Notes: a model not told the origin generated them from the letters alone. A stretch of 64,000 bases of DNA from Thermoplasmata archaeon (GCA_003942085.1 DQIQ01000002.1:898-64897); one strand, 5' to 3'; counted from the stretch's first letter, positions 8,784 to 33,920 are shown. Numbers and translations are program-made.

Positions 8784-8807
8784 AAATACTCCTCATATTC
8801 CCCTTTT

Positions 8808-9236: not shown

Positions 9237-9414
9237 ATTGATGGGCCACTGTTCCTTTGATTTTATATAGTATACGCTATATCAAGTAACATTGGAACGG
9301 CTTACCCGTAATACAATTTCCCCTATAAATAATTTTACCTCCCATCGTCCCTTAAGTTATTTGCGTTTTTCCTCAAGCAAAGATTTTAATTGACCTGCCA
9401 AATACATCACACAA

Positions 9415-15906: not shown

Positions 15907-16302
15907 CTAGTGAGTTGCTACTTTGATATCTATCGTAGGCGGGTTCTGTAAATGTCGTTTTACGGTGCACGTCTCCGCAGCCTTAATCACCGCTTTTTCG
16001 TATTTCTGAGGAAAGTCATCCGGGATGCGGATGGTGATATCACAGCGTTCCACCAGATGCGTCTTTGGATTTCTCTGCATCGACGCATGAAGGGTGATGT
16101 TTTCTGTCGGGATGTTGTTCTTCTGGCAAAAACTCAGTACATAATATCCAGTACAGGTCCCAATCGAGGCAAGGAACAAATCAAACGGTGACGGGGCAGT
16201 TCCTGATCCACCATCAACAATCGGTTGATCGGTTCTAACGGTAAAATCACCAAACAACGCCTCAACTTTCTTCCCATCCGGGAAACGAATCTCCATTTCC
16301 AT
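15907..16302 (-). CDS. OsmC/Ohr-family two-cysteine protein
   Basis: 131-aa ORF with the OsmC-like pattern GSGTAPSPFDLFLASIGTCTG...AAETCTVKRHL (two conserved Cys). It lies 17 nt downstream of the last hdrA-type gene on the same strand. Confidence 0.75.
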   Translation of the reverse strand: MEMEIRFPDGKKVEALFGDFTVRTDQPIVDGGSGTAPSPFDLFLASIGTCTGYYVLSFCQKNNIPTENITLHASMQRNPKTHLVERCDITIRIPDDFPQKYEKAVIKAAETCTVKRHLQNPPTIDIKVATH

Positions 16303-16319
16303 ATCCTCATCCTCTTTTC

Positions 16320-19300
16320 CTATGATTCTTTTAAATAAGAAACCAACTTTTTTTCTGTCATTTCCTCAATCATGGGAAGTATCTGTTTATCCTTGAACCC
16401 TCGTTGTTGAATAGCACTGCTCGGACAGGCGCTCACACACGTCCCGCACCCTTGGCACAGTCCCTCGTTGATCTTTGCATGAATCACGGTTTTTCCATCC
16501 TTTTTTTCTTCGACCCGTTCGATCGCGTTATACGGACACACCGAGATACAAATGCTGCACCCGCTGCAGAGATCTTCATCAACAAAAGCGACATTGGGCT
16601 CTGCCTTTAATGTAGGTTTACACAAGATGGTCGCAGCCCGCGCAGCCGCAGCCTGCGCCTGATAAATCGACTCATTGATGAACTTGGGGACATGACAGTT
16701 CCCAGCAACGAACACCCCGCGTGTCGAAAAATCGACAGGCCGAAGCTTCACATGCGCCTCAAGGAAAAATCCGTCATCGTTCACTGGGACCTTCAATAGT
16801 TTCCCGATCGCCGGGTTATCCAGATTGGGTTGCAGCCCTGTTGAAAGAATCAGATGATCTGCTGGTATCTTCAGATACTCCCCAAGCATCGGCTCATGGA
16901 CTTTTACCACCAGTCCGTTCTTCGATTCAAGCTCCGGTTTCTTCTCAGGGTCGTACTGGAGGAACATGACTCCTTTTTCCCTCGCGTCCTTATAGAACCG
17001 TTCTTTGAAACCATACGTCATTAAATCCCGATAGAGGACAAATACCTCGGATCGCGGGTTCAACTCTTTTATCTTGAGAGCGTTTTTTACCGCCTGCATG
17101 CAACAAATCCTGCTACAGTACGGTCGTTTCTCATCACGGCATTCCACACACTGGATCATGACAAATGTTTCACCGTCGACAATATCCTCTTTGGTGCTTT
17201 CAGAGAGAACCTTCTCAAGCTCCGATTGTGTCAGCACGCGCGGGTCTTTGCCATAATGATAGGTGTGTGGTGTGTACTCATCTGCACCGACCGTCACCAC
17301 GATCACCCCATGAGAAAACGGTATCATTCCGGTCGGGGTCTGGATATCAGACTCGTAACTCCCGACATAACCTTTTAAGGTTTTCACCTGCGAGCTGGTA
17401 TGCACTTTTATCAGAGGATGCTTCGAAACCTTCTCTGTTATTTCCTTAAGCAGTCGGGGGATGTCAATACCGTCAACGGTATAGTACACTTTATGTAAGT
17501 AACCACCAAGCCTTTTTTCTTTTTCGACCAACACCGTCTCGTATCCTTGATCGGCAAGAGACAAAGCCGCTGTCATGCCTGCGATCCCACCACCGATGAC
17601 CAAGGCTTTTTGTAAAACAGGGATCTCAGCTTCTTGAATCGGTTGTAAAAACCTGGTCTTTGCCACCGTCATCGCAATCAGTTGCTTTGCTTTTTCCGTG
17701 GCTTTGGCAGGTTCATCCATGTGGACCCAGGAGCATTGCTCCCGGATGTTCGTCATCTCGAGCAGATACGGATTGAGCCCTGCATCCCGCAGGCTTTTCT
17801 GGAACAGCGGCTCATGCGTCCGAGGTGTGCACGCTGCAATCAAGATACGGTTCAAATCATGTTTCTTGATCGCGTCCACAATCTTCTTCTGCGTATCCTC
17901 AGAACAGGTATAGATGTTCGACTCGACAAAAGCGACATCCTCCAGTGATTTTACATATTCCACGACAGCAGGGACATCCACATAGCCGCCGATGTTGATC
18001 CCGCAATGGCAGAGAAACACGCCAATGCGAGGCTTCTGCGCAGACACATCCTTCTCTGCTGGATACTTTTTTTCTGTAACAAGCGTGCCCCGTGAGTCCT
18101 TCAACAGCGCCGCTGCGTTGGCTGCGGCTGCAGACGCCTGCATCACCGACTCTGGGATCGCCTGCGGTTCCAGGAATGAGCCTGCAACAAAAATCCCTGG
18201 TTTGATGACCACGGGATCATCCGCACTCGTCCGCACATAATTAAACTCATTGACGTCAAAACCAAGGGTATCCATCAGCTCGCTATGTCGTTCACCAGCA
18301 CCACACAATCCGACAGAAAGGACCACAAGGTTGTAGGTTTCCTCTTTGAACTCTCCCTTATCATCCTCGTATTTTATTCTCAGATCCCTTGTTTTAGGGT
18401 CTTCAGTAATCTCAGAGATCCGTGACCGAACATACCGCAGTCCTTGTTCTTTTTTCGCCCGATTGATGTATTTATCGAAATCCTTGCCATACGAACGAAC
18501 ATCGATGTAGAACACGGTCGGCTCGATATCGGACGCATGCTCCTTGGCAATGACCGCTTCTTTTGCGGTGTACATACAGCACATCGCTGAGCAATAATCA
18601 TGGTTTACAGAGGCATCCCGGGAACCCACACAATGCACCCAGGCGACCTTTATCGGATGCTTCTGGTCACTCGGCCGCAGGATCTTGCCCTGCGTCGGAC
18701 CAGATGCTGATAAGACCCGCTCAAACTCCACACTCGTGAGCACATTCTTGTATTTCTTATAACCAAACTCTGGTTTTACCACAGGATCGAACGGTGGGGA
18801 ACCAGCAGCGATAATCACTGCACCAACATGAAACAAGAGATGCTCTGGTTTCTGCTCATGGTTAATCGCACCTGATTTGCATTCTTTGACACAGCGCATG
18901 CAATCGACACAGCCGCGATGCTTCCCATCGCCTTCCTTGTCGATCACATACGCGTTCGGGATCGCCTGCGGGAACGGCTTGTAGATAGCCTTGCGTTTCA
19001 CCAACCCGTACTCAAACGCATTGGGCAAAGAAACAGGACAGACTGCCTCACAGCTCCCGCACGATGTGCATTTCTCCAGGTCGATAAAGCGCGGCTTCTT
19101 TAGCACCTTTACCGTAAAATTCCCTGGGTTCCCTTCGATACCTTCTACCACGACATTAGTAAGAATCTCGATGTTTTGATGACGGGCACAATCCACGAGC
19201 TTTGGGGACAAGATGCACATGGAACAATCATTGGTCGGGAATGTCTTGTCAAGCTGCGCCATGACGCCACCGATTGTCGGTGATTTCTCAAGGACGTAGA

Positions 19301-19400
19301 CTTTGTATCCCATGTCAGCAAGATCAAGAGCAGCCTGCACCCCGGTGATGCCACCACCGACCACAGCAATCGCTCCGATTGTCTCAGATTTTTTTGTCAT
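16320..19400 (-). CDS. tandem (double) HdrA-like flavoprotein / Fe-S protein
   Basis: 1026-aa ORF in two halves. Residues ~1-455 carry VVGGGITG, DKTFPTNDCSMC, CTSCGSCEAVCP and YCSAMCCMYTAKEA. Residues ~457-1026 open with the HdrA N-terminal-domain signature PRIGVFLCHCGINIGGYV, followed by VIGGGIAG and YCSRICCMQAVKNA. The protein ends in CSGCSICISVCP and CQGCGTCVSACP. Confidence 0.85.
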   Translation of the reverse strand: MTKKSETIGAIAVVGGGITGVQAALDLADMGYKVYVLEKSPTIGGVMAQLDKTFPTNDCSMCILSPKLVDCARHQNIEILTNVVVEGIEGNPGNFTVKVLKKPRFIDLEKCTSCGSCEAVCPVSLPNAFEYGLVKRKAIYKPFPQAIPNAYVIDKEGDGKHRGCVDCMRCVKECKSGAINHEQKPEHLLFHVGAVIIAAGSPPFDPVVKPEFGYKKYKNVLTSVEFERVLSASGPTQGKILRPSDQKHPIKVAWVHCVGSRDASVNHDYCSAMCCMYTAKEAVIAKEHASDIEPTVFYIDVRSYGKDFDKYINRAKKEQGLRYVRSRISEITEDPKTRDLRIKYEDDKGEFKEETYNLVVLSVGLCGAGERHSELMDTLGFDVNEFNYVRTSADDPVVIKPGIFVAGSFLEPQAIPESVMQASAAAANAAALLKDSRGTLVTEKKYPAEKDVSAQKPRIGVFLCHCGINIGGYVDVPAVVEYVKSLEDVAFVESNIYTCSEDTQKKIVDAIKKHDLNRILIAACTPRTHEPLFQKSLRDAGLNPYLLEMTNIREQCSWVHMDEPAKATEKAKQLIAMTVAKTRFLQPIQEAEIPVLQKALVIGGGIAGMTAALSLADQGYETVLVEKEKRLGGYLHKVYYTVDGIDIPRLLKEITEKVSKHPLIKVHTSSQVKTLKGYVGSYESDIQTPTGMIPFSHGVIVVTVGADEYTPHTYHYGKDPRVLTQSELEKVLSESTKEDIVDGETFVMIQCVECRDEKRPYCSRICCMQAVKNALKIKELNPRSEVFVLYRDLMTYGFKERFYKDAREKGVMFLQYDPEKKPELESKNGLVVKVHEPMLGEYLKIPADHLILSTGLQPNLDNPAIGKLLKVPVNDDGFFLEAHVKLRPVDFSTRGVFVAGNCHVPKFINESIYQAQAAAARAATILCKPTLKAEPNVAFVDEDLCSGCSICISVCPYNAIERVEEKKDGKTVIHAKINEGLCQGCGTCVSACPSSAIQQRGFKDKQILPMIEEMTEKKLVSYLKES

Positions 19401-19407
19401 AGGTCAT

Positions 19408-20073
19408 CTATTTTGTTGTCCGATTGTATCCTTCTTTCATCGCGATGTTCTTAATAGCATTCATCAATTTTGGTATCTCGACTCCTTGTGGACATTGGGT
19501 GAAACACCGATGATGAGACGAGCAGATCTCAACAAACTTGTTGCAGAACACTGGCTCTTTCATCCCCAGGAGCACGTTCTTGATTACTCTGCGTGGTGAA
19601 TACAGTGCATCAAGCTCCCGCTCAGGGCAACCCGCTGTACACGTACCGCAGGAGAAACACTCATAGAGGTCCTTACCAGCCTTATCCTGTGTTATTTTAT
19701 ATTTGAAATCCAAATCAAGGTACTTCTTGGTCTGCTCCCCGGTGACATACTCAACGTGTTCCTCAAGGAGCCGGGCGTCCCGCACCGCGTTCATGACTTC
19801 TTTTACATTGACCTTCTGCGGACATTTCTCTAAGCATCGATAATGAGCGCTGCAGATCCAGAAGAACTCACTGGTCAGCACCTCTTCTTTTAATCCGAGG
19901 AGTGCTTTCCGGATGACGACCCGCGCGTTCCACTCTGGTTTGACGTCCATCTCAGGACAACGGGCGGTACACGCACCACATGCGAAGCATTTGAGGATGC
20001 CTTCGCCACCCTCTTCTTTAGCTATCTGAAACTTGAATCCAGGGTCAATCTTGCGGGAGTCGATCACATCCAT
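19408..20073 (-). CDS. internally duplicated HdrC-like Fe-S protein
   Basis: 221-aa ORF with two ~105-aa repeats. Each has CxxCxxCxxxCPE (CFACGACTARCPE; CFSCGTCTAGCPE) followed by a degenerate second motif (ICSAHYRCLEKCPQ; ICSSHHRCFTQCPQ). Confidence 0.7.
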   Translation of the reverse strand: MDVIDSRKIDPGFKFQIAKEEGGEGILKCFACGACTARCPEMDVKPEWNARVVIRKALLGLKEEVLTSEFFWICSAHYRCLEKCPQKVNVKEVMNAVRDARLLEEHVEYVTGEQTKKYLDLDFKYKITQDKAGKDLYECFSCGTCTAGCPERELDALYSPRRVIKNVLLGMKEPVFCNKFVEICSSHHRCFTQCPQGVEIPKLMNAIKNIAMKEGYNRTTK

Positions 20074-20074
20074 G

Positions 20075-21196
20075 TTACTTTTCTCCTACCTCCAAGAACT
20101 CATCCTCCCGATAGACGATCATCGGGACTTTCTCGGTCCTGTCCTTGCCGGGGTGATAATCAAACTCCTTCTGAGCATTCTCAGCAGCAGGGATGAACAC
20201 TTCCATAAGCGGAATATTGTTGGGGCACGCCTGTTCGCATAACCCGCACTCCACACAAGAAAGGATCATATGGTTCATCCGCCCGAGCTGAAAGAGCAGC
20301 GCATCGTTCGGCATCTTAAACAACCCTTTGACCTCTGCTCTGCGCAAAAACTTATACGCTTCGGCGTCGAACACTGATGAGTCGAACAGACACTCTTTAC
20401 AGTAACAAATCGGGCACGCCTGCCGGCAGTTATGACAGTTGACGCATTTATCGAAAAACTCAGCGACCTTATCGATCCCTTTGATTCCTTCTTTTTCTTT
20501 GAGGAATAACGCACGTTTCTTGGTCTTTTCGTCACGGATCTCTTTTACTGCTTTCTCCCGGCTTTTCCCTTCTTTTTCATCCTCAAGAGGTAAGTCTTTT
20601 AGGATTTCCTTTCCGACGTCAGAGTGCGCCTCAACAATAATTTCTTTTTCGAAATCAGTGCCGTAGAACCCAAGGATGATATCTGCGTTTGTTGGAATAG
20701 GGTCTTTGCACATCCGACAAACCGAGCGGAAATATTTTTCTGCGTCATCGGATTTCTTTACCCATGCTTCAAGGAGGAAATGCGTAGGTGTTTTCTTCTC
20801 AGGGAACTCCGCATAGGTGTTTAGGGGAAACGTACCTGGGCAGTCGACGCCGATGATCACGATGTTTATGAGATTCGCTTGGTTCAGCTTCACCAGTTCG
20901 ATGAGCGCCCGGATCTGACAGGACCGCATGACGACCCCGATGGGTTTAGCAGGTGGCTGCACTTTCGTCATCTTTGACACCATAGCGGCGGTTGACGCGG
21001 GAAGAATCGGTGCAATAATATCAGCGTGAAGCTTCTTTGGGTCGGAGATCAGCACCGGGAAAGCGACTTTTTTCGACGGAGTGTTCTGCGGGACAAGTAA
21101 CGCCTGGATTTTTCCTGAGGAAAGCAACTGTCTGAAGAACTCGTTGGTCGATCCTATCACGTCATTATCCTTGACTTTGATTACTTTTTGTGTCAT
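20075..21196 (-). CDS. FrhB/FdhB-family (F420/flavin-binding beta-subunit-like) protein with a C-terminal 2x[4Fe-4S] ferredoxin domain
   Basis: I place the start at ATG 21196, which is preceded by GGAGGAGGAAG. The track's 21250 start would overlap mvhD. The FrhB-like segments are IGVVMRSCQIRALIE...IVIIGVDCPGTF and CRMCKDPIPTNADIILGFYG. The C-terminus has CVNCHNCRQACP and CVECGLCEQACP. Confidence 0.6.
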   Translation of the reverse strand: MTQKVIKVKDNDVIGSTNEFFRQLLSSGKIQALLVPQNTPSKKVAFPVLISDPKKLHADIIAPILPASTAAMVSKMTKVQPPAKPIGVVMRSCQIRALIELVKLNQANLINIVIIGVDCPGTFPLNTYAEFPEKKTPTHFLLEAWVKKSDDAEKYFRSVCRMCKDPIPTNADIILGFYGTDFEKEIIVEAHSDVGKEILKDLPLEDEKEGKSREKAVKEIRDEKTKKRALFLKEKEGIKGIDKVAEFFDKCVNCHNCRQACPICYCKECLFDSSVFDAEAYKFLRRAEVKGLFKMPNDALLFQLGRMNHMILSCVECGLCEQACPNNIPLMEVFIPAAENAQKEFDYHPGKDRTEKVPMIVYREDEFLEVGEK

Positions 21197-21212
21197 TTTT
21201 CTTCCTCCTCCC

Positions 21213-21662
21213 TCAGAGATTCCAGTGTTTGGCGATCGGGCTGGGTCCAAGTTTCCTAATCGATTCGGTCATTTCTTTCATCGTATCAGCGAACTTCTGG
21301 CCTTCGGAGGCGGAGATCCATCGCAGCCACACCCGCTCTTTTTCCAAACCTAAGGTACCCAGGATATTTTCGAGAAGCACCATACGGCGTCGCGCCTTAT
21401 AGTTCCCGTCGATGTAATGACAATCACCAGGATGACAGCCGCCGACAAACACCCCGTCGGCACCCTCAAGTAACGCACGAAGAATGTACATGGAATCAAC
21501 AGACCCTGAGCACATGACCCGGATGATCCGGACGTTCGGAGGGTACTGGATCCTGCTGGTCCCAGCTAGGTCAGCCCCTGCGTAACTGCACCAGTTGCAG
21601 AGAAACCCAACGATCCTTGGTTCGAAGTCTTCCTTCTTATGGTCCTTTTTTTCTTCACTCAT
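21213..21662 (-). CDS. mvhD: MvhD-like (methyl-viologen-reducing hydrogenase delta subunit family) protein
   Basis: 149-aa ORF with [19 protein letters not shown]...MCSGSVD...[17 protein letters not shown], the characteristic MvhD/FlpD pattern. Confidence 0.9.
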
Positions 21663-21668
21663 ACCTTC

Positions 21669-24600
21669 TCACTCCAAACACGCATCAATCATAGAGACAA
21701 TCTGACGTTTCGTAAACGTATTCTGCTGCGACGTCCCACTCGGGCAGACCGCTGAGCATGCACCACACCCTTGGCAGAGGATTTCATTGACGATGACGAT
21801 TTTCTTTTCTTCATCAAAACTGATCGCATCATATGGACAGGCCTCAATACAGAGCTGACACCCTGCGCAATTCCGGGAAATCACTCTTGCGATATTCCCA
21901 ATCGTCTCAAGATACTTTTTTGATAGGATGGTGGCAGCACGCGCACCGGTTGCCTTGGCCTGCAGGATTGACTCTTCGATGAACCGTGGGGAATGCGCAA
22001 GACCGCAGAGGAAAATGCCGTCCGCGGAAAAATCAATGGGACGGAGTTTCACATGAGCCTCTGAGTAAAACTCGTCTTCGTTCAATGGGACTTTGAGGAT
22101 CTGGGCAAGAGTCTTGTTCTCCTGTGGGATGATACCAGTACTGAGCACCAATCTATCAGGATGCAAATGCAACGGTCGACCAAGGATTGGATCCATGGTT
22201 TTTACCAAGAGTTTCCCATCCTCGACCGTGACTTTAGGTTCTTCCTTCTCATCGAATCTCACAAAAAGGATCCCTTTCTTCCGAGCCTTCTGGTAAAGAA
22301 AATCTTCGCGGAACCCATACGTTCTGATATCTCGATATAGGACATAGACTGCTGCATCTGGACTTAGTTCTTTTAATCGCAACGCGTTCTTCAACGCCTC
22401 AGAACAGCATACCCTGCTGCAGTACGGATGATCATCGTTTCGTGAACCAACGCATTGGATCATGACGACTTCCTTGAGGTTCTTCACATATGGTTTTTCC
22501 ATGAAAAGATCCTTTTCAAACTCAGTCTGCGTCAGCACATCATCATTTTTCTTGTAATGGAATTCCTTGGGCTCATAAGGCAGCCCACCGGTCGCAACCA
22601 CGATGATGCCGTGCTGAACAACGGTCGGTGTCTTCTCCTTTTTACCTGTAGAAAGGGTCGTGGAGAAGTTCCCGACATAACCAGAGACATGACCTACTGA
22701 TGTGTTAGTGAACACTTGGATCTGGGGATTACTCATAACTTGTTCTCTCGTCTGCGCCAGCAGCTCCTGAGGTTTTTCCCCGGCAGACCCAAGATAGATC
22801 TCTTTTAGATGACCGCCAAGCCCTGGTTCCTTTTCAACCAGGTACACCTGGAAGCCTTGCTCGGCGATGGAAAGTGCAGCAGTCATCCCGGCAATACCAC
22901 CACCGATCACCAGCGCACTAGACAGCACCGGGATCTGCAGATGATGAACCGGATACAGATCAGAGGATTTTGCAACTGCCATTCTTACGGCATCGATTGC
23001 CTTTTCAGTCGCACTCCCTGGAGCACTTTTATGGACCCAGGAGTTCTGATCACGGAGGTTCGCCATCTCAAACAGATGAGGATTCAACCCGGACTGCCGT
23101 AGTGTATCCTGGAACAACGGTTCATGTGTCCGTGGGGTACACGACGCAATAACAACCCGGTTTAACCTTAACTCCTTTATTTTTTCCTTTATTTTCTCTT
23201 GGGAATCCTGCGAACAGGTAAATAACGTATCATCTGAATGGACAACAAAGGGAAGTTTCTTTGCGACCTCGACGACTTTTTTAACATCGACTACACCAGC
23301 GATGTTGATGCCGCAATGACAGACGAACACACCAATGCGAGGGAACTCGGCTTTGATGTCACGCTCCGCAGGATAGGTCTTTTCAACAACCTCAGTTCCA
23401 CGCACGTCCGCAATAGATTTTCCTGCTTCAGCTGCAGCTGCTGATGCCTGGGTGACGCTCTCCGGGATATCTTTTGGTTCGGTGACCGTACCTGAAGCAA
23501 AGATACCTTCGCGTGAGGTAGAAATAGGGGTAAACGTCCCTGTTTCAATAAAACCGTATTCGTTCAAATTGATCTCTAAGGCTTTACTCAGGTGGCCTAA
23601 AGACGCACAGGGCTGCAGCCCGACAGAAAGCACCACCATGTCATACGTTTCGCTTTTGATAAACCCTTTTTCATCGACGTAGCGGATGAGTAGCTCCTTG
23701 GTCTTCCGATCTTGTTCGATCTTGGGGATGCGACATCTCCGGTACACGACCCCGTATTCATGCTCTGCACGGGCGAAATACTTATCAAAATCCTTCCCAA
23801 ACGACCGCATGTCCATATAGTAGATATGAGTCTCTATTCCAGGTTCGTGTTCCTTAGATATAACTGCTTCTTTGGTTGCATACATGCAACAGACCGATGA
23901 GCAATATTTCCGATCGCAGCTTTCATCGCGAGAACCGATGCATTGGAGCCAAGCGATTTTTTTGGGTGGCTTTCCATCGGAGATCCGTTTGATATGTCCC
24001 TTGTAAGGTCCAGAGGCGGAAAGCATCCGTTCGTACTCAATGCTGGTCAGCACGTTCGGATACACCTGGTAACCGTAGCTGTCTGCTTTTGGTGGGGAGT
24101 ACTCGGCAAAACCTGGGGATACGATCACGGCACCGACATCGATAGTCTCAGTTGTTTCCTTCATTTGATGATCGATCGCCTCAGGTCCGCAATACAGGAC
24201 GCACTGCTGACAATCACAACATCCTGCACAGTTCAGGCAACGTTGCGCCTCGCGAACGACCTGATCCTTCGACAATCCCGGGTCAACCTCGATAAACGAT
24301 TTTATCCGCTCTTCAATAGTAAGAAAAGGTGGCTGTTCACGAGCATGGGGGATTCGCAGTGTTTCCTTTGGAATCTCAGCTTTCTTTTGTACTTTTGGTT
24401 CCCGTCCAGCTCGCAGGTCTTCGTGGTTGAAAAATCGATCAATTGATTCTGCTGCGGCATGGCCTGCGCCTATTGCTTCAACTGCGGAGGCAGGACCAGT
24501 CACCGCATCACCACCAGCAAACACACCCTCCTGGGATGTTTGTAAGGTGACTGGATCAGCCTCGATAAACCCTGATTTTGATAATGCGATATTGTTTTCT

Positions 24601-26201
24601 TCCAGCAGTTTGGTATCAAGCTCTTGACCAATGGCAAATATGACATAGTCACAGGGAACATCGTACGCGGAATCAGGGATGGCAACCGGTCGCCTTCGCC
24701 CTGAAGAATCAGGTTCCCCCAGATCCATTTTCACGCACGAAAGACAGGTTTCATTTTCCTTCTTCACAAGCTTTGTGGGAGCGGTCAGATATTTAAACAA
24801 AATGCCTTCTTCCACCGCCTGCTGTATTTCATCCTTATGCGCGGGCATCTCCTTTACAGACCGGCGATAGAGCACGGTTACATCACCACCTAGTCGTTTT
24901 GCGGTCCGTGCTGAATCCATGGCGACATTCCCACCGCCGACCACCAAGATGGTTTTTCCCTTGAAATACTCAGGAGCAATCATGTTCCTGTTCAGCTGTT
25001 TAAGATATTCCACGCCCTCAAGGATGCAGGTATCGGTCCCTGCGCAGCATTCTATCCCTGAGCCACGGGATTTATGTGCACCTATCGCAAGGAGAACTGC
25101 TTTGAATCCTTGTTTTTTCAACTCAGTGACCGAAAAATCCCGTCCGAGCTTCTGATTGTTTTTTATCTCGATTTGTTCGGCTTCGCAGAGAGGATCGATC
25201 TCTTTATGCAGGTATTCCTTTGGTAGCCGATAATCAGGTACCCCGTAATGCAGCATCCCGCCACTGTATTTCTCTGATTCAAAAATAACGGTCTTATACC
25301 CTTTTCTGGCAAGGTCATAAGCTGCGGTCAACCCCGTTGGTCCAGCACCGATGATCGCGACTTTCTGGTCGTTGCCTCTTTTTGTCACATGACTTTGTTT
25401 TCCTTGTTTTTTTTCTGCTTTTATTCTCTGATACTCGGCAAGCGTCTCGGGATGTTCATAAATATAATCAGCGACAAAGCGTCTGATATGGCAGATGGAA
25501 ATCGGCTCTTCGATGTCCTTTCGGTTACAGTCATTTTCACAGGGATGATAACAAATCCTCCCCAGTGACCCTGGGATCGGGATTGTTTCTTTGATGAGTT
25601 CATAGGCCTCGGCGAATTTCTCTTGCGCGGCGAGTGCGACAAACCCATGAGCGTTCAATCCAGCAGGACAAGCGATCCGGCAGGGGGAGGTTCCTTCGTT
25701 TTTCGTAATTGCAAAGATGTTGGGGATCGCCTGCGGAAACGGTTGATAAATCGCTTTATGCGTAGTCAGCCCTTCATCAAACTCAGATCGCATCGTAACA
25801 GGACAGTGCAGGACGCAATCGCCGCACCCGTTACATTTCTTTAGATCGACAAACCGCGGATATTTTTTCAACGTGACATGGAAAGCTCCTACTTCACCAG
25901 CGACATCGGTGACCTCTGCGTTTGTGATAATGGAAATATTCGGATGCCGTCCGGTGTACACCAGTTTTGGTGCAAGGATGCACATCGCACAGTCGTTTGT
26001 GGGAAATGTTTTATCCAGCTGTGTCATCGTGCCACCGATAGATAGCCCGCGGTCGACGATATATACCCTAAATCCAGCATCCGCTAAATCAAGGGAAGAT
26101 TGGATACCAGAGATTCCTCCACCGATGACCAGGACTGATCCATGTTTATGAGCAGATGCGGCCTGATGTTTTTTTTCTTTGGTCATACTCGTAAAACTCA
26201 C
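21669..26201 (-). CDS. giant HdrA-like protein with an inserted GltD/NfnB-like NAD(P)H-FAD module and a second HdrA module (HdrL-like)
   Basis: 1510-aa ORF. HdrA module 1 is VIGGGISG...DKTFPTNDCAMC...CNGCGDCVLHCP...PFPQAIP. A GltD-like insert follows: CRIACPAG...CYHPCENDC, KVAIIGAGPTGLTAAYDLARKG, GGMLHYGVPDYRLPK, ILVVGGGNVAMDSART, GVFAGGD. HdrA module 1 then resumes with YCSSVCCMYATKEA. Next come PRIGVFVCHCGINIAG, VIGGGIAG and YCSRVCCSEALKNA. The C-terminus has CAGCQLCIEACP and CQGCGACSAVCP. The GTG start overlaps the hdrA stop; an alternative ATG lies at 26186. Confidence 0.85.
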   Translation of the reverse strand: MSFTSMTKEKKHQAASAHKHGSVLVIGGGISGIQSSLDLADAGFRVYIVDRGLSIGGTMTQLDKTFPTNDCAMCILAPKLVYTGRHPNISIITNAEVTDVAGEVGAFHVTLKKYPRFVDLKKCNGCGDCVLHCPVTMRSEFDEGLTTHKAIYQPFPQAIPNIFAITKNEGTSPCRIACPAGLNAHGFVALAAQEKFAEAYELIKETIPIPGSLGRICYHPCENDCNRKDIEEPISICHIRRFVADYIYEHPETLAEYQRIKAEKKQGKQSHVTKRGNDQKVAIIGAGPTGLTAAYDLARKGYKTVIFESEKYSGGMLHYGVPDYRLPKEYLHKEIDPLCEAEQIEIKNNQKLGRDFSVTELKKQGFKAVLLAIGAHKSRGSGIECCAGTDTCILEGVEYLKQLNRNMIAPEYFKGKTILVVGGGNVAMDSARTAKRLGGDVTVLYRRSVKEMPAHKDEIQQAVEEGILFKYLTAPTKLVKKENETCLSCVKMDLGEPDSSGRRRPVAIPDSAYDVPCDYVIFAIGQELDTKLLEENNIALSKSGFIEADPVTLQTSQEGVFAGGDAVTGPASAVEAIGAGHAAAESIDRFFNHEDLRAGREPKVQKKAEIPKETLRIPHAREQPPFLTIEERIKSFIEVDPGLSKDQVVREAQRCLNCAGCCDCQQCVLYCGPEAIDHQMKETTETIDVGAVIVSPGFAEYSPPKADSYGYQVYPNVLTSIEYERMLSASGPYKGHIKRISDGKPPKKIAWLQCIGSRDESCDRKYCSSVCCMYATKEAVISKEHEPGIETHIYYMDMRSFGKDFDKYFARAEHEYGVVYRRCRIPKIEQDRKTKELLIRYVDEKGFIKSETYDMVVLSVGLQPCASLGHLSKALEINLNEYGFIETGTFTPISTSREGIFASGTVTEPKDIPESVTQASAAAAEAGKSIADVRGTEVVEKTYPAERDIKAEFPRIGVFVCHCGINIAGVVDVKKVVEVAKKLPFVVHSDDTLFTCSQDSQEKIKEKIKELRLNRVVIASCTPRTHEPLFQDTLRQSGLNPHLFEMANLRDQNSWVHKSAPGSATEKAIDAVRMAVAKSSDLYPVHHLQIPVLSSALVIGGGIAGMTAALSIAEQGFQVYLVEKEPGLGGHLKEIYLGSAGEKPQELLAQTREQVMSNPQIQVFTNTSVGHVSGYVGNFSTTLSTGKKEKTPTVVQHGIIVVATGGLPYEPKEFHYKKNDDVLTQTEFEKDLFMEKPYVKNLKEVVMIQCVGSRNDDHPYCSRVCCSEALKNALRLKELSPDAAVYVLYRDIRTYGFREDFLYQKARKKGILFVRFDEKEEPKVTVEDGKLLVKTMDPILGRPLHLHPDRLVLSTGIIPQENKTLAQILKVPLNEDEFYSEAHVKLRPIDFSADGIFLCGLAHSPRFIEESILQAKATGARAATILSKKYLETIGNIARVISRNCAGCQLCIEACPYDAISFDEEKKIVIVNEILCQGCGACSAVCPSGTSQQNTFTKRQIVSMIDACLE

Positions 26202-28156
26202 ATGATGTCGTCAACCATGTTCAGGAGCTGTTTCTTTGTGAAATTCTTATGAATCGAGGCGTTGCTCGGACAGGCGGCGATACAGCCGCCACAGCCAGCG
26301 CATAAGGCGTCGTTCACCTCAGCGATTCGTTTTCTTTCATTCAAGGTCCGTGCCTCATACGGGCAGACTTCAACGCAGATCCCGCACCCCGTGCAGACGT
26401 CCTCATCGACCATCGCAATCAATGGGTCTATCTCCAGTTCTTCCTGGGATAGGATCGTCGCGGCACGTGACGCTGCCGCACTTGCTTGTGCGACGGTATC
26501 TTGGATATCTTTTGGTGCTTGGCAGCATCCAGCGATGAAAATCCCATTGACAAACGTATCAACAGGGCGAAGCTTCGGATGTGCCTCAAGGAAGAACCCG
26601 TCACCGCTCAACGTCAAATGCAAGAGCCGTGCAAATTCTATTGCATCAACTCGTGGCATCATCGCAGGAACCAGGACAACCAGGTCGGTCTGTATTTCAA
26701 ACAACTTGTTGGTCATCGTATCAAAAATATCGATCTTGAGGTTCTCTTTCATGGTCCGTACCTCAGACGGTTGCCCTCGGAACATGTTGGTATGCAACCC
26801 TCGAACCTTCCGGTAGAACTCCTCGTAGCCTTTCCCAAAGGACCGAACGTCATTGTAGCAGACGTTGATCTCGACATCGTCCCCGAGCTTCTCGCGAAGC
26901 AAGTAGACTTGTTTTAATGCAGTCATGCACCCGATCCTGCAGCACCAGGTACACTGGGTCTCATCACGAGAGCCGACACAGAGGATGAATGTAACGCTCT
27001 TTGGTTTCTGCTGGTTTGACGGCCGCAGGATTTCCCCTTTGGTTGGTCCTGAGGAGCTGATCAATCGCTCCAGCTCTAAGGTAGTGATTACATCAGGTGA
27101 TTGGTCGTAGCCGTACTCATACACCGCGGTGGGGTCCATGATGTCATACCCGGTGGCAACGATTATGGCTCCGACTTTTCGCTCCACGATTTCTTCTTTT
27201 TGATCAAAATTGACTGCCCCAGCTGCACAAGCTTTCTTACAGAGAGGTTCATCCCCGCATTTTCCTTTTGTCAAAAACAGGCATTTCTTGTCGTCGATTA
27301 CGTATTTCAAGGGTACCGCTTGAGGGAACGGCATGTAGGCTGCCCCGCGCTTTCCCATGCCTTGATTAAACTCACTGATCAGTCGGTCTTTGAGTCGACA
27401 GGCGCTGGCGCAATCACCACAACCGGTACATTTGTCAACATCAACGTATCGTGGTTTTTTTCTTATCTTGACGGTGTAGTTCCCGATACTTCCTTCAAGA
27501 CTGGCGACTTCTGAGTAACTGAGCAGTTCGATGTTCTTATGGTTCGCCACTTCCATCATCTTTGGAGTGAGGATACAGGAGGAACAATCAAGGGTCGGGA
27601 AGGTTTTATCCAGTTGCGCCATGTGTCCGCCGATACTGGGTTCTCGCTCCACTAGATGGACTTTGAACCCATCGTTAGCAAGATCAAGAGCGGTTTGAAT
27701 GCCCGCGATCCCACCTCCGATCACTAAGGCTTCCGGGATGACTTTCAAGGTCGATGTTTTCAATGGCTCAAGACTGAGAGCTTTGGATACTGCACTACGA
27801 ACAAGATACTTTGCTTTCTCCGTCGCTTGCTCTTTGTTGCTATGTGCCCACGAACATTGTTCACGAATGTTCGAGATCTCAACTCGGTAGGGATTCACAC
27901 CGCCGTCATTGGCGACCCGTCGGAATGTCTGTTCATGCATCCGCGGTGAACATGAGGCTATCACGACACCATCGAGTTTGAATTCCTTGATCGTGTCTTT
28001 GATGAGGGTTGCGCCCACGTCTGAGCACATATACTTGTAGTGTTTTGCGACTACTACGCCGTTCAGATGAGATGCGTACTCGGAAAGTGCTTCGATGTCG
28101 ACGGTTTGTGCGATGTTGATGCCGCAATGACAGACGAACACACCGATGCGACGCAT
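26198..28156 (-). CDS. hdrA: heterodisulfide reductase subunit A (canonical length)
   Basis: 652-aa ORF with MRRIGVFVCHCGINIAQ, VIGGGIAG...DKTFPTLDCSSC, CTGCGDCASAC, and C-terminal CTGCGICVEVCP and CAGCGGCIAACP. Confidence 0.92.
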   Translation of the reverse strand: MRRIGVFVCHCGINIAQTVDIEALSEYASHLNGVVVAKHYKYMCSDVGATLIKDTIKEFKLDGVVIASCSPRMHEQTFRRVANDGGVNPYRVEISNIREQCSWAHSNKEQATEKAKYLVRSAVSKALSLEPLKTSTLKVIPEALVIGGGIAGIQTALDLANDGFKVHLVEREPSIGGHMAQLDKTFPTLDCSSCILTPKMMEVANHKNIELLSYSEVASLEGSIGNYTVKIRKKPRYVDVDKCTGCGDCASACRLKDRLISEFNQGMGKRGAAYMPFPQAVPLKYVIDDKKCLFLTKGKCGDEPLCKKACAAGAVNFDQKEEIVERKVGAIIVATGYDIMDPTAVYEYGYDQSPDVITTLELERLISSSGPTKGEILRPSNQQKPKSVTFILCVGSRDETQCTWCCRIGCMTALKQVYLLREKLGDDVEINVCYNDVRSFGKGYEEFYRKVRGLHTNMFRGQPSEVRTMKENLKIDIFDTMTNKLFEIQTDLVVLVPAMMPRVDAIEFARLLHLTLSGDGFFLEAHPKLRPVDTFVNGIFIAGCCQAPKDIQDTVAQASAAASRAATILSQEELEIDPLIAMVDEDVCTGCGICVEVCPYEARTLNERKRIAEVNDALCAGCGGCIAACPSNASIHKNFTKKQLLNMVDDIM

Positions 28157-29035
28157 CTATTTCGCGCCTCCCTCTTGGAGTTTTTGAACGGGACTGAGGT
28201 TCAACTCAAGTCCTAGCTTCTCACTACTGATCCCCATCGCTAAACCGAGCAACTGGGTCAGATACAGGACCGGGACATCGAGCTTTGCAGCAACGGTCTC
28301 CCCTGCTTTAGTTTGTCTACTGTCAAACATCTTATGACACCATGGACAGACATCAACCATCGCTTGGATTCCTTGCTCTTGGATCGCTTGGAGCTTCTGC
28401 CCAGTCTTTGTCAACGCAGACTCCGGAAGATTCGTAAGCAAGGGTGCGCCACAGCAATCAAGCTTCTGAGGATAGTTTACAGGTTCGGCACCCAAAACCT
28501 TCAGGATCGCTTCGATCTTCTGCGGGTTCTCAGAGTCATCGATACGACCGATTTCACTGGGACGAAGAATATGACATCCGTAATGTGCTGCGATCTTTAA
28601 TCCGTGTAATGGTTTTTTCACCTGTTCCTTTATCTTTTCGATCCCTATTTCATCATATAATAGGTCGACGGTATGAGCGATGTGCCGTTTCTCAGTGTAT
28701 TTCAGATCCTCAGCAGCAAGCATCCCGTTGATGCGTTCCATCATCGCTGGGTTTTTTTCAAGGATATATTGGCATTCGGTTAACGCAAGATGGCACATCG
28801 CGCAGGGGACGAAGAGGTCAAGATGATGCTTCTCGGCGATAGCCAGGTTTCGCGCAGAAAGATACAACGTAAGAAGTTGGTTGACACTTTTCATGGGCTC
28901 TCCGCAACAGGAAAAACCCTCCACATCGACAAGTTCGACCCCTAGCAAAGGTAGTGTTTCTCTGATCGAAAGCTCATAGGCATACTGCTCCGTGGGCATC
29001 AGACAACCGGGAAATAGCGCATATTTCTTTTTCAT
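28157..29035 (-). CDS. hdrB: heterodisulfide reductase subunit B (two CCG domains)
   Basis: 292-aa ORF starting YALFPGCLMP, with CCG motifs FSCCGEP and LDCCGAPLL. It abuts the hdrA start. Confidence 0.92.
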   Translation of the reverse strand: MKKKYALFPGCLMPTEQYAYELSIRETLPLLGVELVDVEGFSCCGEPMKSVNQLLTLYLSARNLAIAEKHHLDLFVPCAMCHLALTECQYILEKNPAMMERINGMLAAEDLKYTEKRHIAHTVDLLYDEIGIEKIKEQVKKPLHGLKIAAHYGCHILRPSEIGRIDDSENPQKIEAILKVLGAEPVNYPQKLDCCGAPLLTNLPESALTKTGQKLQAIQEQGIQAMVDVCPWCHKMFDSRQTKAGETVAAKLDVPVLYLTQLLGLAMGISSEKLGLELNLSPVQKLQEGGAK

Positions 29036-29040
29036 TATGT

Positions 29041-29568
29041 CTAGACCTTTTCCATCGCGATTTTCATGATTCCTGCCTGGAACTTGGCAACATCAGTAGG
29101 TTTTGAAAGAGGAGGAAGGGAAAGTTCGTCTCGTTTCACCGGTTTATTTGATCGGGTCGTGGTCTGTTGGATGTCCTGTATGAGACCTATCGAAAGGATA
29201 GATTGGAGCATTCCAGTATATTTTCCCGGGATTTGTTTTCCGCTTGCTACCGCCATATTTTTCAGCGCAAACAAGATTTCGACTGGTGCGACGCGTTGCG
29301 GGCAGCGCTCCCTGCATTTCAGGCAGGTCATGCACGTCCAGATGACATCGGCGTTCACCAGTTCGTTGATGAGCCCTCTTTTAAGAAGCGCGACGATCTT
29401 ATGCGGCTCAAGCTCAAGGAGTTTGTGTGCTTCACAGCCTGAGGTACATTTGCCGCATTGAAAACAATACTCTGAGATTTCGTCCTGGAGCTTTGTGAGT
29501 CGATCATTGAGTTCCTTTCTCAGATCTGATTGCGGTTCCCCCATAGAAGTCAAGTCGATGATGCTCAT
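29041..29568 (-). CDS. hdrC: heterodisulfide reductase subunit C
   Basis: 175-aa ORF with CFQCGKCTSGCE and WTCMTCLKCRERCPQ. It lies 5 nt upstream of hdrB. Confidence 0.9.
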   Translation of the reverse strand: MSIIDLTSMGEPQSDLRKELNDRLTKLQDEISEYCFQCGKCTSGCEAHKLLELEPHKIVALLKRGLINELVNADVIWTCMTCLKCRERCPQRVAPVEILFALKNMAVASGKQIPGKYTGMLQSILSIGLIQDIQQTTTRSNKPVKRDELSLPPLSKPTDVAKFQAGIMKIAMEKV

Positions 29569-29755
29569 TTCCGTCTCACTCTATATATTAAATTAACAAT
29601 CGTTAACTATATATACTTTTCCGACTTCCTTGCAAAAACGTTTATCTAAAAGAGATATTTAAAGCTATCAATAAAATTAACCCTTTCTTTTCACCATTCC
29701 AAATGCTGTCAATTAATATAGCAAAATACAATATCCCTGGGCATGGGGGCCTATA

Positions 29756-31105
29756 ATGAAACAGATCAACGAAAAACAACTTCTTGAAAAAGCCAACAAA
29801 CCATCAAAAGACGCTATGAGGCTACATCCATTCTATCATGGAAAAATCGAAATCATCCCAAAATGCCGGGTGAACGACTTCAATGATTTCGCGATCTGGT
29901 ACACCCCTGGCGTCGCAGAACCATGCAAAGACATCCAGAAACACCCACTCAAAGTGTACGATTACACCAACAAATGGAACACTGTCGCTGTGGTAAGCGA
30001 CGGCACTCGGGTGCTCGGCCTTGGGGACATCGGCCCCGAAGCAGGGCTCCCGGTCATGGAAGGAAAATCACTCCTCTTCAAATACCTCGGAGGTGTCGAT
30101 GCCTATCCGATTTGTCTTGATACAAAAAACCCTGACGAAATCATCCAAGCGGTCAAATGGCTCAAACCAAGCTTTGGCGGCATCAATCTTGAGGACATCG
30201 CAAAACCAAAATGCTTCTACATCCTCAACCGACTCCGAAAAGAAATGGACATCCCGGTCTGGCATGACGACCAACAAGGGACCGCAACCATTGTCACCGC
30301 AGGGGCAATCAACGCGTTAAAAATCGTTGGAAAACCGCTAAAGACCACACTTGTCTCAATGATCGGTGCAGGTGCGGCAAACATAGCAATAGCCCGGGTT
30401 CTCATCGCCGCTGGGGTTCAGCAAAAAAACATCATCATGGCAGACAGTAAAGGCATTCTCCATACCTCACGAAAAGACCTGGAGAAAGACAAAAACACAA
30501 ACCCGGAAAAATGGCAGATGTGCCAAAAATCAAACGCAGAAGGCCGGACAGGGACCATCGCAGACGCCATGAAAAATACCGATATCTGCATCGCAGCAAG
30601 TAAACCAGGTCCAGGGACCATCAAAAAAGAATGGGTCGCCTCTATGGCAGATGACTCCATCATGTTTGCCTCAGCAAACCCCGTTCCTGAGATCTGGCCC
30701 TGGGAAGCAGAAGAGGCAGGAGCTCGCATCATTGCGACAGGGCGCTCAGATTTTCCTAACCAAATCAACAACTCCTTAGGATTCCCAGGGATCTTCCGGG
30801 GAACACTCGATGTCCGCGCAGAAACCATCACCGATGAAATGTGCATCGCCGCAGCATTGGAGCTGGCAAAAACAGCGGAGGACAAGGGGTTGAGCGATAC
30901 CTACATCGTTCCAACCATGGACTCCTGGGAAGTGTTCCCTCGAGAAGCAGTCGCGGTAGGAATGAAAGCAATCTCCCAAGGGATCGCTCGTCTCAAACCA
31001 TCACGCCAGGAGCTCTATGACCATGCCATGACCATCATAAAGAAATCCAGGGATATCACACAAACGTTGATGAAACAAGGATACATCGCACAAGCCCCAG
31101 AATGA
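29756..31105 (+). CDS. NAD(P)-dependent malic enzyme (short form)
   Basis: 449-aa ORF with [51 protein letters not shown] and GAGAANIA. Confidence 0.9.
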
Positions 31106-33159: not shown

Positions 33160-33920
33160 AACAAAAACCACGGGTCGCTGTCTTTGATTTTGCAGATTGT
33201 GAAGGATGTGAGCTTGAAATCGCTGATCTCGAGGAAGAAATCCTTGATTTGATTTCACTGGTTGATATCGTCTCGTTTCGAGAGGTGATGAAGGAGCATT
33301 CTGATACTTATGATATCGCTATTGTCGAAGGCTCCATTATGCGGCCGATGGATGAACAACGGCTAAGAGGGATCCGGAGTCGCGCAAAAATCCTTATTGC
33401 CCTTGGTGCCTGCGCAACCATGGGTGGGGTCAACAAGATTAGGAACCAATGGATGCCGGATGAAGTAAAAAAAGATGTGTATGGTGATGCAAACCTTAAA
33501 GGAAACGAGCTTTTTGATGTTTTTCAAACCAAGGCGATCAACGAAGTCGTGCCTGTTGATTATTATATCTATGGCTGTCCCATTGATCGTGATGAATTTA
33601 AATCGGTCATCACCGCAATTGCTTTGGGGAAGAAACCTGAGATCCCCCGGTATCCTGTCTGCGTCGAATGTAAGAAAAACGAAAATATCTGCCAATTCGA
33701 GCTAGGCGCATTCTGCCTTGGTCCGATCACTCGCGCGGGATGCAAAGCGATCTGTCCGACCCATAATAGCCCCTGTGAAGGATGTAGAGGTCTCATCAAG
33801 AAGCAGGAAGCAGATTGCGTCAAAGCGGTATTGGAACGATACAAGCTTTCCTATGAGGATATACGACGACGATGCACGATGTATAACTATGGACGAAAGG
33901 AGTGTAGTTACGATGAGTAA
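33156..33920 (+). CDS. hydD: [NiFe]-hydrogenase small (delta) subunit, group 3b-like
   Basis: 254-aa ORF with RVAVFDFADCEGCE...IVEGSI...GACATMGG...GCP. Overlaps on both sides give ATGA-type coupling to the flanking hydrogenase genes. Confidence 0.85.
   Translation: MKQKPRVAVFDFADCEGCELEIADLEEEILDLISLVDIVSFREVMKEHSDTYDIAIVEGSIMRPMDEQRLRGIRSRAKILIALGACATMGGVNKIRNQWMPDEVKKDVYGDANLKGNELFDVFQTKAINEVVPVDYYIYGCPIDRDEFKSVITAIALGKKPEIPRYPVCVECKKNENICQFELGAFCLGPITRAGCKAICPTHNSPCEGCRGLIKKQEADCVKAVLERYKLSYEDIRRRCTMYNYGRKECSYDE

Follow-up and report, generated by a model that had tools for sequence, protein, structure and literature searches.

An eight-gene heterodisulfide reductase-type cluster, conserved in Thermoplasmatota, that encodes HdrABC and two predicted single-chain HdrA dimers

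Introduction

Flavin-based electron bifurcation by HdrA has a central place in the energy conservation of anaerobes. The locus considered here raises the question of what a heterodisulfide reductase (Hdr) gene set with five HdrA-type modules and a single HdrB might do in an archaeon outside the methanogens, and whether its products work together. It lies in a stretch of 64,000 nucleotides (nt) from a Thermoplasmata archaeon (GCA_003942085.1, DQIQ01000002.1:898-64897), called the window below, in which a minus-strand run of nine tightly packed open reading frames (ORFs) was called at 15907-29568. An earlier, sequence-only reading took this run for a nine-gene unit with an orphan MvhD and left its novelty undecided. 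We find that eight of the nine genes recur as a unit in related genomes, and propose, with a probability of about 60%, that they form a conserved operon for a soluble multi-flavin Hdr-type bifurcating or confurcating network of the HdrABC/HdrL-MvhD kind, to which a second pseudo-dimeric HdrA is added. The host is a Thermoplasmata archaeon, the longest product of the cluster being 100% identical to a protein labelled 'MAG TPA: Thermoplasmata archaeon', and its lineage consists of widespread sediment and groundwater archaea.

Results and Discussion

Gene content and start sites

Recomputing the ORFs returned all nine genes at the coordinates of the sequence-only reading, and searches against Pfam, NCBIfam and PDB sequences bear out its assignments to HdrC, HdrB, HdrA, a GltD (NfnB) insert, MvhD, an FrhB-like protein, a duplicated HdrC-like protein, a double HdrA and OsmC. 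From the upstream end, with product lengths in amino acids (aa), the features are as follows.

29569..29755, no strand: AT-rich intergenic region between the divergent hdrC and malic enzyme genes
29041..29568, minus strand: hdrC, 175 aa; Pfam Fer4_8, 1.3e-09
28157..29035, minus strand: hdrB, 292 aa; Pfam CCG, 7e-26, two stretches
26198..28156, minus strand: hdrA, 652 aa; canonical full-length type I HdrA without an MvhD fusion
21669..26186, minus strand: hdrL-type fusion, 1505 aa; HdrA module 1, NfnB/GltD insert, HdrA module 2
24237..25706, minus strand: NfnB/GltD-like insert of the fusion, about residues 166-655 (1510-aa numbering); Pfam Fer4_20 and Pyr_redox_2
21213..21662, minus strand: mvhD, 149 aa; [2Fe-2S] connector protein; Pfam FlpD, 1.9e-57
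20075..21196, minus strand: FdhB/ElpB/FrhB-like iron-sulfur flavoprotein, 373 aa; Pfam FrhB_FdhB_C, 7.7e-10, and Fer4_8
19408..20073, minus strand: hdrC2, tandem HdrC-like ferredoxin, 221 aa; TIGR03290, 8.5e-35, two stretches
16320..19400, minus strand: double HdrA, type II, 1026 aa; module 1 at residues 13-433, module 2 at 458-1014
15907..16302, minus strand: osmC, 131 aa; thiol-peroxidase fold; Pfam OsmC, 7.5e-19

The longest frames run from 29041-29568, 28157-29035, 26198-28156, 21669-26201, 21213-21662, 20075-21250, 19408-20073 and 16320-19400 to 15907-16302, and depart from the features above at two starts. For the FrhB-like gene the longest frame opens at TTG 21250, a start that was rejected because ATG 21196 sits behind a ribosome-binding site, GGGAGGAGG, and fits a gap of 16 nt to mvhD; independent gene calls also give a product of 373 aa. 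The fusion begins at Met6 (26186; 1505 aa) in the NCBI/JGI annotation and at GTG 26201 (1510 aa) in the longest frame. The 4-nt overlap with hdrA that had been claimed exists only with the GTG start and becomes an 11-nt gap with the public one; the other spacings (5, 0, 6, 16, 1, 7 and 17 nt in gene order) were reproduced. Read directly, the intergenic region contains AAAGTATATATAG about 35 nt upstream of the hdrC ATG; the region is a likely promoter region, with this element as a putative TATA box.

Conservation among Thermoplasmatota

Eight genes, from hdrC to the double HdrA, recur in the same order and with the same spacing in four other Thermoplasmatota loci, L011 (LFW-68_2), L081, L085 and L086, whose HdrL proteins are respectively 77%, 75%, 69% and 65% identical to that of the window. 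The order is kept from hdrA onward in L082 (62%), where the contig begins within hdrA and thus places hdrC and hdrB outside the view. The ninth position varies: it is taken by osmC in the window, L011 and L081, by ferredoxin, flavoprotein and POR genes in L085, by nothing related in L086 and, in L082 (11640-14946), by a second mvhD with mvhG ([NiFe] small subunit), mvhA (large subunit) and hycI. Because of this variation the conserved unit is one of eight genes rather than nine, and osmC is an accessory neighbour outside the conserved core; as a ninth core member it was rejected on account of its replacement in L082, L085 and L086.

The canonical HdrABC

The first three genes encode what appears to be an intact HdrABC. 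HdrC has two CxxCxxCxxxC [4Fe-4S] motifs. HdrB, whose CCG motifs lie at residues 43 and 194, retains all ten cysteines of its two CCG domains (Cys 11, 43, 44, 78 and 81; 154, 194, 195, 230 and 233), a set that would fit two non-cubane [4Fe-4S] clusters. The full cysteine set of the disulfide site is thus kept by HdrB and HdrC. The hdrA product matches M. wolfeii HdrA end to end (5odc_A residues 5-647, E 1.4e-214, PDB sequence search) and has the N-terminal iron-sulfur domain, Cys194/197, the thioredoxin-reductase flavin adenine dinucleotide (FAD) domain and the inserted and C-terminal ferredoxin domains.

The cysteines of the thioredoxin-reductase-domain [4Fe-4S] cluster, labelled HA4 here, are present in all five HdrA modules of the window and lie at 386/399/403/404 in M. 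wolfeii. The four modules of the two long proteins have the standard pattern at 399-404; in canonical hdrA the set reads 386/399/400/404, Gly replacing the cluster ligand Cys403 and an extra Cys standing at 400 (CC at 399/400; M. wolfeii numbering).

Another reading is that the cluster encodes a classical heterodisulfide reductase acting on CoM-S-S-CoB, the heterodisulfide of coenzyme M (CoM) and coenzyme B (CoB), in methanogenesis or methanotrophy. The top matches of hdrA, hdrB and hdrC are methanogen Hdr subunits, and the Methanomassiliicoccales belong to the Thermoplasmata. However, every CoB-CoM Hdr equivalog model scores below its curated cut-off, for which reason the three products are best regarded, as far as their sequences tell, as Hdr-family proteins and not demonstrably as CoM-S-S-CoB reductases. 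The window's roughly 50 annotated ORFs (Pfam) include no mcr, mtr or other methanogenesis genes, in agreement with the sequence-only reading. The closest genome, LFW-68_2, has been described as that of a protease-rich organic-matter degrader (PMC8561730), non-methanogenic Thermoplasmata retain Hdr genes with an 'unknown heterodisulphide' (bioRxiv 10.1101/2020.03.09.984617), and the family of the fusion is chiefly bacterial. We consider a methanogenic or methanotrophic role very improbable.

Two long proteins with complementary HdrA modules

The GGGI[S/A/T]G motifs of the five HdrA modules noted earlier are all present, at residue 147 of hdrA, 27 and 1100 of the fusion and 15 and 603 of the double HdrA; a sixth Rossmann motif, GAGPTG, stands at residue 285 of the fusion, within the GltD/NfnB insert. 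The fusion is the HdrL of sulfate reducers, or type III HdrA, and the double HdrA is of type II. Against the PDB, HdrL divides into four HdrA stretches and one NfnB stretch, and the double HdrA matches 5odc_A in three stretches (E 4.3e-218). The two proteins resemble each other, the fusion (residues 660-1510) and the double HdrA (residues 163-1016) sharing 50% identity (BLAST).

The NfnB stretch interrupts the inserted-ferredoxin domain of module 1. Its edges are marked by BLAST against hdrA, of which residues 144-313 correspond to fusion residues 24-181 and residues 300-557 to fusion residues 661-918. Between them, residues 172-594 match the NfnI large subunit (5jca_L, 1.7e-73), and the insert is complete, with two [4Fe-4S] motifs, an FAD site (GAGPTG) and a site for reduced nicotinamide adenine dinucleotide (phosphate), NAD(P)H (GGGNVA). 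HdrL thus carries an entire NfnB-like NAD(P)H:FAD:2x[4Fe-4S] unit, located where ferredoxin is reduced in canonical HdrA. No solved HdrA-NfnB fusion was found in the PDB, where the matches divide into HdrA chains and NfnB-like chains of Stn, Nfn and Fdh complexes.

Alignment to M. wolfeii HdrA shows the FAD motif, E356 and K409 to be retained in all five modules, the latter two being residues by which bifurcating HdrA is recognised (PMC12054007). The modules of each long protein are otherwise complementary: module 1 has C194/C197 and the inserted ferredoxin domain and lacks the N-terminal and C-terminal domains, and module 2 has the cysteines of the N-terminal domain and has lost C194/C197. 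Twelve HdrL proteins from archaea and bacteria that share 51-80% identity with the first sequence show no change at Cys66/Cys69 of module 1 or at C956, C958, C991 and C1016 of the module 2 N-terminal domain. Complementarity of this kind between Cys197 and the N-terminal domain has been proposed to give heterodimers from tandem or fused HdrA in anaerobic methanotrophic archaea (ANME; PMC9012536), and because the pattern of loss matches that proposal each long protein is best read as a single-chain asymmetric HdrA pseudo-heterodimer, whose predicted packing would leave one ferredoxin-side exit and one MvhD-side entry.

MvhD, the ElpB-like protein and hdrC2

The mvhD product is a full-length FlpD protein (PF02662, profile positions 1-123 of 123; NF045873 VhuD, 3.6e-43) with five cysteines. 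Homology searches of the window found mvhD as a single copy and returned no second mvhD or second hdrB.

The protein encoded next has 15 invariant cysteines and passes the cut-off of PF04432 (39.3 against 23.3 bits). In sequence it matches FdhB chains of the PDB (9t1s_M, 2.4e-32; 8rvu_E; 7bkb_E; range 2.4e-32 to 4.7e-21), to which it aligns from about residue 155. Its AlphaFold2 model (predicted local distance difference test, pLDDT, 74.7; predicted template modelling score, pTM, 0.78) is confident in the N-terminal half as well, with a pLDDT of 82-95 per 10-residue block up to residue 100, and this part lies inside the 415-column Foldseek alignment. The top Foldseek matches, both with probability 1.0, are ElpB (8rvu_E; template modelling score, TM, 0.64) and FdhB (7bkb_E; TM 0.63), those to FrhB being weaker (TM 0.45-0.47, normalised to query length); the model thus suggests that the FrhB-like protein folds like ElpB/FdhB. 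In solved complexes an FdhB-type subunit oxidises reduced coenzyme F420 (F420H2) at FAD and passes electrons through [4Fe-4S] clusters to an MvhD-type [2Fe-2S] protein and on to HdrA, and biochemistry and cryogenic electron microscopy have established that ElpB-ElpC-HdrABC feeds electrons from F420H2 to HdrA (PMC12350162). By analogy, mvhD and the FdhB-like gene would encode a donor arm of the same design without an FdhA or ElpA partner, for which F420 is a candidate carrier.

The two halves of hdrC2 are each about 30% identical to hdrC (BLAST), and each pairs a CxxCxxCxxxCP motif with a CxxHxxCxxxCP motif, in which His replaces the second Cys. The arrangement is kept in six Thermoplasmatota lineages and suggests His-ligated or otherwise atypical clusters.

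Distribution of HdrL and its gene partners

A scan of species-representative genomes found the fusion family in at least 599 species, mostly anaerobic bacteria: Syntrophales, Desulfobacterales, Acidobacteriota, Bacillota, Chloroflexota and Atribacteria, with Desulfotruncus arcticus, Ca. Formimonas warabiya and Smithella among cultured members. Gene context was counted in the best 80 of these at least 599 hdrL loci, 66 of which were evaluable for mvhD and 60 for hdrB. The mvhD gene lies within 800 nt downstream of hdrL in 55 of the 66, in bacteria and archaea alike, so that the orphan MvhD, which had been considered an oddity, follows the rule of the family. Behind hdrL-mvhD there is often an frhB-like gene with two HydB/HydG-like (Flx-like) genes, as in L056, L066 and L074; other hdrL loci adjoin hdrCB, or [NiFe] small and large subunit genes.

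Some of these loci have features of their own. Just downstream of hdrL, mvhD takes the form of two neighbouring ORFs (about 70-160 aa) in L018, L019, L044, L046-L050, L055, L057, L061, L067 and L079, which is consistent with an in-frame UGA selenocysteine codon; the MvhD of Desulfobacterium autotrophicum is reported to contain selenocysteine (PMC2702500). A similar split affects several hdrL ORFs, among them those of L012, L061 and L067. The hdrB-hdrA-hdrL-mvhD genes of L077, labelled Fibrobacterota, are 64-75% identical to the Thermoplasmata genes, far above the 41-57% of genuine bacterial homologs, so that this contig is probably archaeal and mis-binned. In L062 (9995-14941), from Candidatus Hodarchaeota (Asgard), HdrL carries a C-terminal MvhD fusion (1648 aa) and is preceded by a gene for a 389-aa HdrC-like protein.

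A neighbouring hydrogenase and malic enzyme

On the opposite strand, a [NiFe] hydrogenase operon, absent from the sequence-only reading, begins 1.65 kb upstream of hdrC, with a malic enzyme gene in between.

29756..31105, plus strand: malic enzyme, 449 aa; Pfam malic and Malic_M; divergent from hdrC
31216..35214, plus strand: group 3b [NiFe] hydrogenase; Pfam and P. furiosus SH I matches
31216-33159, plus strand: fused beta-gamma subunit of the hydrogenase, a single 647-aa ORF; SH I beta 1.5e-52, gamma 8.6e-49
33156-33920, plus strand: hydrogenase small subunit; Pfam
about 33913-35214, plus strand: hydrogenase large subunit, start inferred; SH I alpha 3.4e-62, MvhA 4.6e-58
35227..35712, plus strand: HycI-type hydrogenase maturation protease; Pfam HycI, 4.1e-23

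Because the fused beta-gamma subunit matches both SH I beta and SH I gamma of P. furiosus, the enzyme is assigned by sequence to group 3b, the NAD(P)-coupled sulfhydrogenase type, and a Mvh-type identity was rejected on the same matches. The earlier observation that no mvhA or mvhG adjoins mvhD stands and extends to the hdr genes of the window, the sole [NiFe] hydrogenase there being the one with the SH I-type beta-gamma subunit. Malic enzyme and group 3b hydrogenase also flank the operon in L011 and L081, where the malic enzyme is 90% and 86% identical, respectively. Taken together, malic enzyme, SH-type hydrogenase and the NfnB-type insert point to NADP(H) as a putative common carrier.

The proximity of this enzyme raises the prospect of an H2-driven, Mvh-like system, with direct docking of the hydrogenase to MvhD and HdrA. 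Its large subunit scores nearly as well against MvhA as against SH I alpha, the related L082 has mvhD-mvhG-mvhA at the end of its operon, and [NiFe] small and large subunit genes lie 0.1-2 kb from hdrL-mvhD in L003, L013, L020, L060, L065 and L075. In the window, however, the hydrogenase has an NAD(P)-binding beta-gamma subunit of its own, as in P. furiosus SH I, which is the signature of group 3b; it is transcribed divergently, beyond the malic enzyme gene, and no MvhG/MvhA-type pair stands beside mvhD. Direct docking therefore seems unlikely to us.

OsmC and lipoyl proteins

Cys50 and Cys112 of the window OsmC align with the two conserved cysteines (GACT, DKC) of the OsmC domain 9wo1_A. A thiol-recycling or antioxidant system could be imagined in which HdrB reduces a protein-bound disulfide, on a lipoyl carrier or on OsmC itself, and so feeds an OsmC peroxidase. 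The sHdr systems of sulfur oxidisers depend on a lipoate-binding protein, and lipoyl groups act as reductants for Ohr/OsmC enzymes. With this would agree the retention of both cysteines and the position of osmC, directly after the operon in the window, L011 and L081 and beside hdrL in the differently arranged L084. In two Thermoplasmatota-labelled loci, L084 (6469-10004) and L087 (1-1739), hdrC-hdrB-hdrL is immediately preceded by a gene for a lipoate-protein ligase, and L084 has in addition a GcvH-like carrier gene in the ligase region, its osmC gene being next to hdrL (6469-10004 and 14538-14972). The operon occurs, however, without osmC in L082, L085 and L086, and among the 80 genome loci an osmC homolog beside hdrL was detected only in L011. 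Homology searches of the window returned no GcvH or LplA homolog, and for this reason the lipoyl link of L084 and L087 cannot be transferred to the window genome. Such a function for the cluster appears even less probable than hydrogenase docking.

One network or several enzymes

How, then, might the operon work? Its cofactor-binding anatomy is observed; from it we infer the direction of electron flow, the stoichiometry, the carriers and the disulfide. NAD(P)H, supplied by the adjacent malic enzyme and group 3b hydrogenase, would enter or leave at the NfnB insert of HdrL, where canonical HdrA reduces ferredoxin. The clusters of the NfnB domain would be expected to connect to those of HdrA rather than to free ferredoxin, since the domain is embedded in HdrA. 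MvhD and the FdhB/ElpB-like protein would serve as a donor arm like FdhB-MvhD or ElpB-ElpC, carrying electrons from F420H2 or another hydride carrier, and the low-potential partner would be ferredoxin from 2-oxoacid oxidation, which is plentiful in a peptide fermenter (PMC8561730; bioRxiv 10.1101/2020.03.09.984617). HdrBC would reduce a disulfide other than CoM-S-S-CoB. A relevant precedent is S. fumaroxidans, which has abundant HdrABC/HdrL proteins when it reduces sulfate (PMC5947623).

The most serious alternative is that the genes encode two or three independent enzymes that exchange no electrons directly: HdrABC, HdrL-MvhD with the FdhB-like protein, and hdrC2 with the type II HdrA. In its favour, the modules are found apart elsewhere, HdrL-MvhD often without a nearby hdrB. 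A type II HdrA has its own mvhD in L010, L025, L075 and L078 and, in L082, is followed by its own mvhD-mvhG-mvhA; in L001, mvhD, an frhB-like gene and hdrC2 precede a pseudo-dimeric HdrA, suggesting a self-contained four-gene unit. Yet the eight-gene order and tight spacing are identical where HdrL is 65-77% identical, and L082 keeps the order from hdrA onward even at 62%. In the window, moreover, the intergenic gaps are only 0-16 nt, and a single mvhD and a single hdrB serve three HdrA units. We regard separate enzymes as possible, although clearly less probable than the joint network.

Several further observations count against a joint Hdr-type network. An hdrB gene lies directly upstream of hdrL in only 14 of the 60 evaluable loci; in L087 hdrCBA is apart from hdrL, and L084 has hdrCB-hdrL with no mvhD called beside hdrL. 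No HdrB partner gene adjoins hdrC2 in the window, and the N-terminal FrhB domain PF04422 was not detected in the FdhB/ElpB-like protein (Pfam, E <= 0.001). The canonical subunits fall short of the NCBIfam equivalog cut-offs: 830.6 against 1100 bits for HdrA2, 246.1 against 345 bits for HdrB (TIGR03288, 4.2e-73) and 74.5 against 160 bits for HdrC (TIGR03290, 8.4e-21). Finally, biochemical work has been confined to types I and Ia of HdrA, types II and III having received none (PMC12054007).

An extreme version of the joint network is a single supercomplex of all eight products, with three HdrA dimer-equivalents (one symmetric and two single-chain asymmetric), one shared MvhD/FdhB-like arm, one HdrBC site and the bifurcating flavins, including that of NfnB, in series. 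In a fermentative archaeon, NADPH, ferredoxin, a second hydride carrier and a non-CoM disulfide would thereby be coupled in a cascade of bifurcations; speculation about a cascade of two bifurcations has been limited to ANME clusters (PMC12054007). We hold this idea to be doubtful.

Comparison with known Hdr systems

The nearest relatives are the HdrABC/HdrL-MvhD systems of sulfate reducers and syntrophs. HdrL was named in D. autotrophicum (HdrL1-3), where mvhD was noted beside it already in 2009 (PMC2702500), and Syntrophobacter fumaroxidans has an HdrABC/HdrL cluster, Sfum_0819-0824 (PMC5947623). These systems share with the window a large HdrA/GltD fusion followed by mvhD, together with hdrABC and an iron-sulfur protein resembling the beta subunits of formate dehydrogenase or hydrogenase, and have no MvhA (PMC2702500, PMC5947623). 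Their composition is that of window genes 1-6, the match to Sfum_0822 resting on the description in that paper and not on sequence comparison, and homologs of the fusion in the at least 599 species are 41-57% identical. The window differs in being archaeal (Thermoplasmata), in adding the tandem HdrC-like gene and a second, NfnB-free pseudo-dimeric HdrA to the operon, and in lacking nearby Dsr genes or DsrC as well as selenocysteine.

Fused and NfnB-inserted HdrA have also been catalogued in ANME (PMC9012536), as types II and III (PMC12054007). The HdrA3/4, HdrA9-11 and class A9-TRX-C proteins of these and other methane- and alkane-metabolising archaea have, like those of the window, two thioredoxin-reductase modules per chain with complementary N-terminal domain and Cys197, an NfnB/GltD unit within the inserted-ferredoxin domain, K409 and E356 (PMC9012536, PMC12054007), and cluster with MvhD and FdhB-like genes. 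In contrast, the window host appears to lack methane metabolism and the cluster has no FdhA-like molybdopterin gene; the Cys197 module comes first, opposite to the order given for HdrA3/4 in PMC9012536; and neither paper describes the joining of these proteins with a canonical hdrCBA and hdrC2 in a single conserved eight-gene operon (PMC9012536, PMC12054007).

The ElpB-ElpC and FdhB-MvhD Hdr complexes likewise have FdhB-like FAD/[4Fe-4S] and MvhD-type [2Fe-2S] proteins encoded beside HdrA, with the fold similarity given above (TM 0.64 and 0.63), whereas sequence identity is only 19-23%, no ElpA or FdhA partner gene is present in the window, the HdrA partner may be a pseudo-dimeric fusion, and the disulfide is not expected to be CoM-S-S-CoB. 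The MvhAGD-HdrABC complex of hydrogenotrophic methanogens (5odc) shares the end-to-end hdrA, the complete HdrB and HdrC cysteine sets and MvhD; the window departs from it in the absence of MvhA and MvhG, in its group 3b hydrogenase, in two extra HdrA-type polypeptides and in the missed equivalog cut-offs.

FlxABCD-HdrABC of Desulfovibrio and relatives and the HdrABC-MvhD-MetFV system of Moorella, whose HdrA is a fused double HdrA (PMC9012536), are also NAD(P)H-linked Hdr systems with MvhD (FlxD) and an FrhB-like iron-sulfur protein. In the window, by contrast, NAD(P)H binding would take place within HdrL, metFV genes are lacking, and HydG/HydB-like sequences occur only in the hydrogenase beta-gamma ORF (31216-33159) and not in the operon. 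With NfnAB/NfnSL the likeness extends to the whole NfnI large subunit, including both [4Fe-4S] motifs and the FAD and NADPH sites, but the window has no NfnA/NfnS partner and the domain is embedded in HdrA.

Each building block having been catalogued already, the operon combines known parts in a new way and introduces neither a new kind of system nor a new principle. The cluster is accordingly less unusual than first thought, with an MvhD that lacks Mvh partners as the rule in the HdrL family, a hydrogenase close by and protein architectures already described (PMC2702500, PMC5947623, PMC9012536, PMC12054007). The part of the novelty question that survives concerns the exact eight-gene arrangement, for which the literature found gives neither description nor characterisation: publications on LFW-68_2, the Yaplasmales and lineages basal to the Methanomassiliicoccales contain only generic HdrABC/MvhADG entries or do not mention the cluster. 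The conserved combination, in non-methanogenic Thermoplasmatota, of HdrABC, two single-chain asymmetric HdrA dimers, MvhD, an ElpB-like protein and a CxxH tandem HdrC-like protein thus appears to be undescribed.

By joining canonical HdrABC, an NfnB-inserted and a plain pseudo-dimeric HdrA, MvhD and an ElpB-like donor under what is predicted to be a single promoter, the operon offers a compact natural test case for electron routing in asymmetric HdrA dimers, for the role of NAD(P)H at the ferredoxin exit and for the disulfide used by Hdr outside methanogens. It also suggests that 'HdrABC/MvhADG' annotations in non-methanogenic Thermoplasmata may hide a different, NADP-linked system.

Other features of the window

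The remaining annotated ORFs are housekeeping genes, for RNA polymerase, exosome, proteasome, ribosomal proteins, purA, ThrRS, HMG-CoA reductase and a C25 peptidase. The same-strand run extends beyond osmC, with 48 nt between its stop codon and the purA ATG at 15858. The purA gene of L081 (20309-22786; HdrL 75% identical) contains an intein (Intein_splicing and LAGLIDADG, 825 aa), which is absent from that of the window (14593-15858). The window has one tRNA, tRNA-Lys(UUU), at 9161-9236. G+C content is about 0.48-0.50 over the hdr cluster (16-30 kb) and drops to about 0.39-0.43 past 36 kb.

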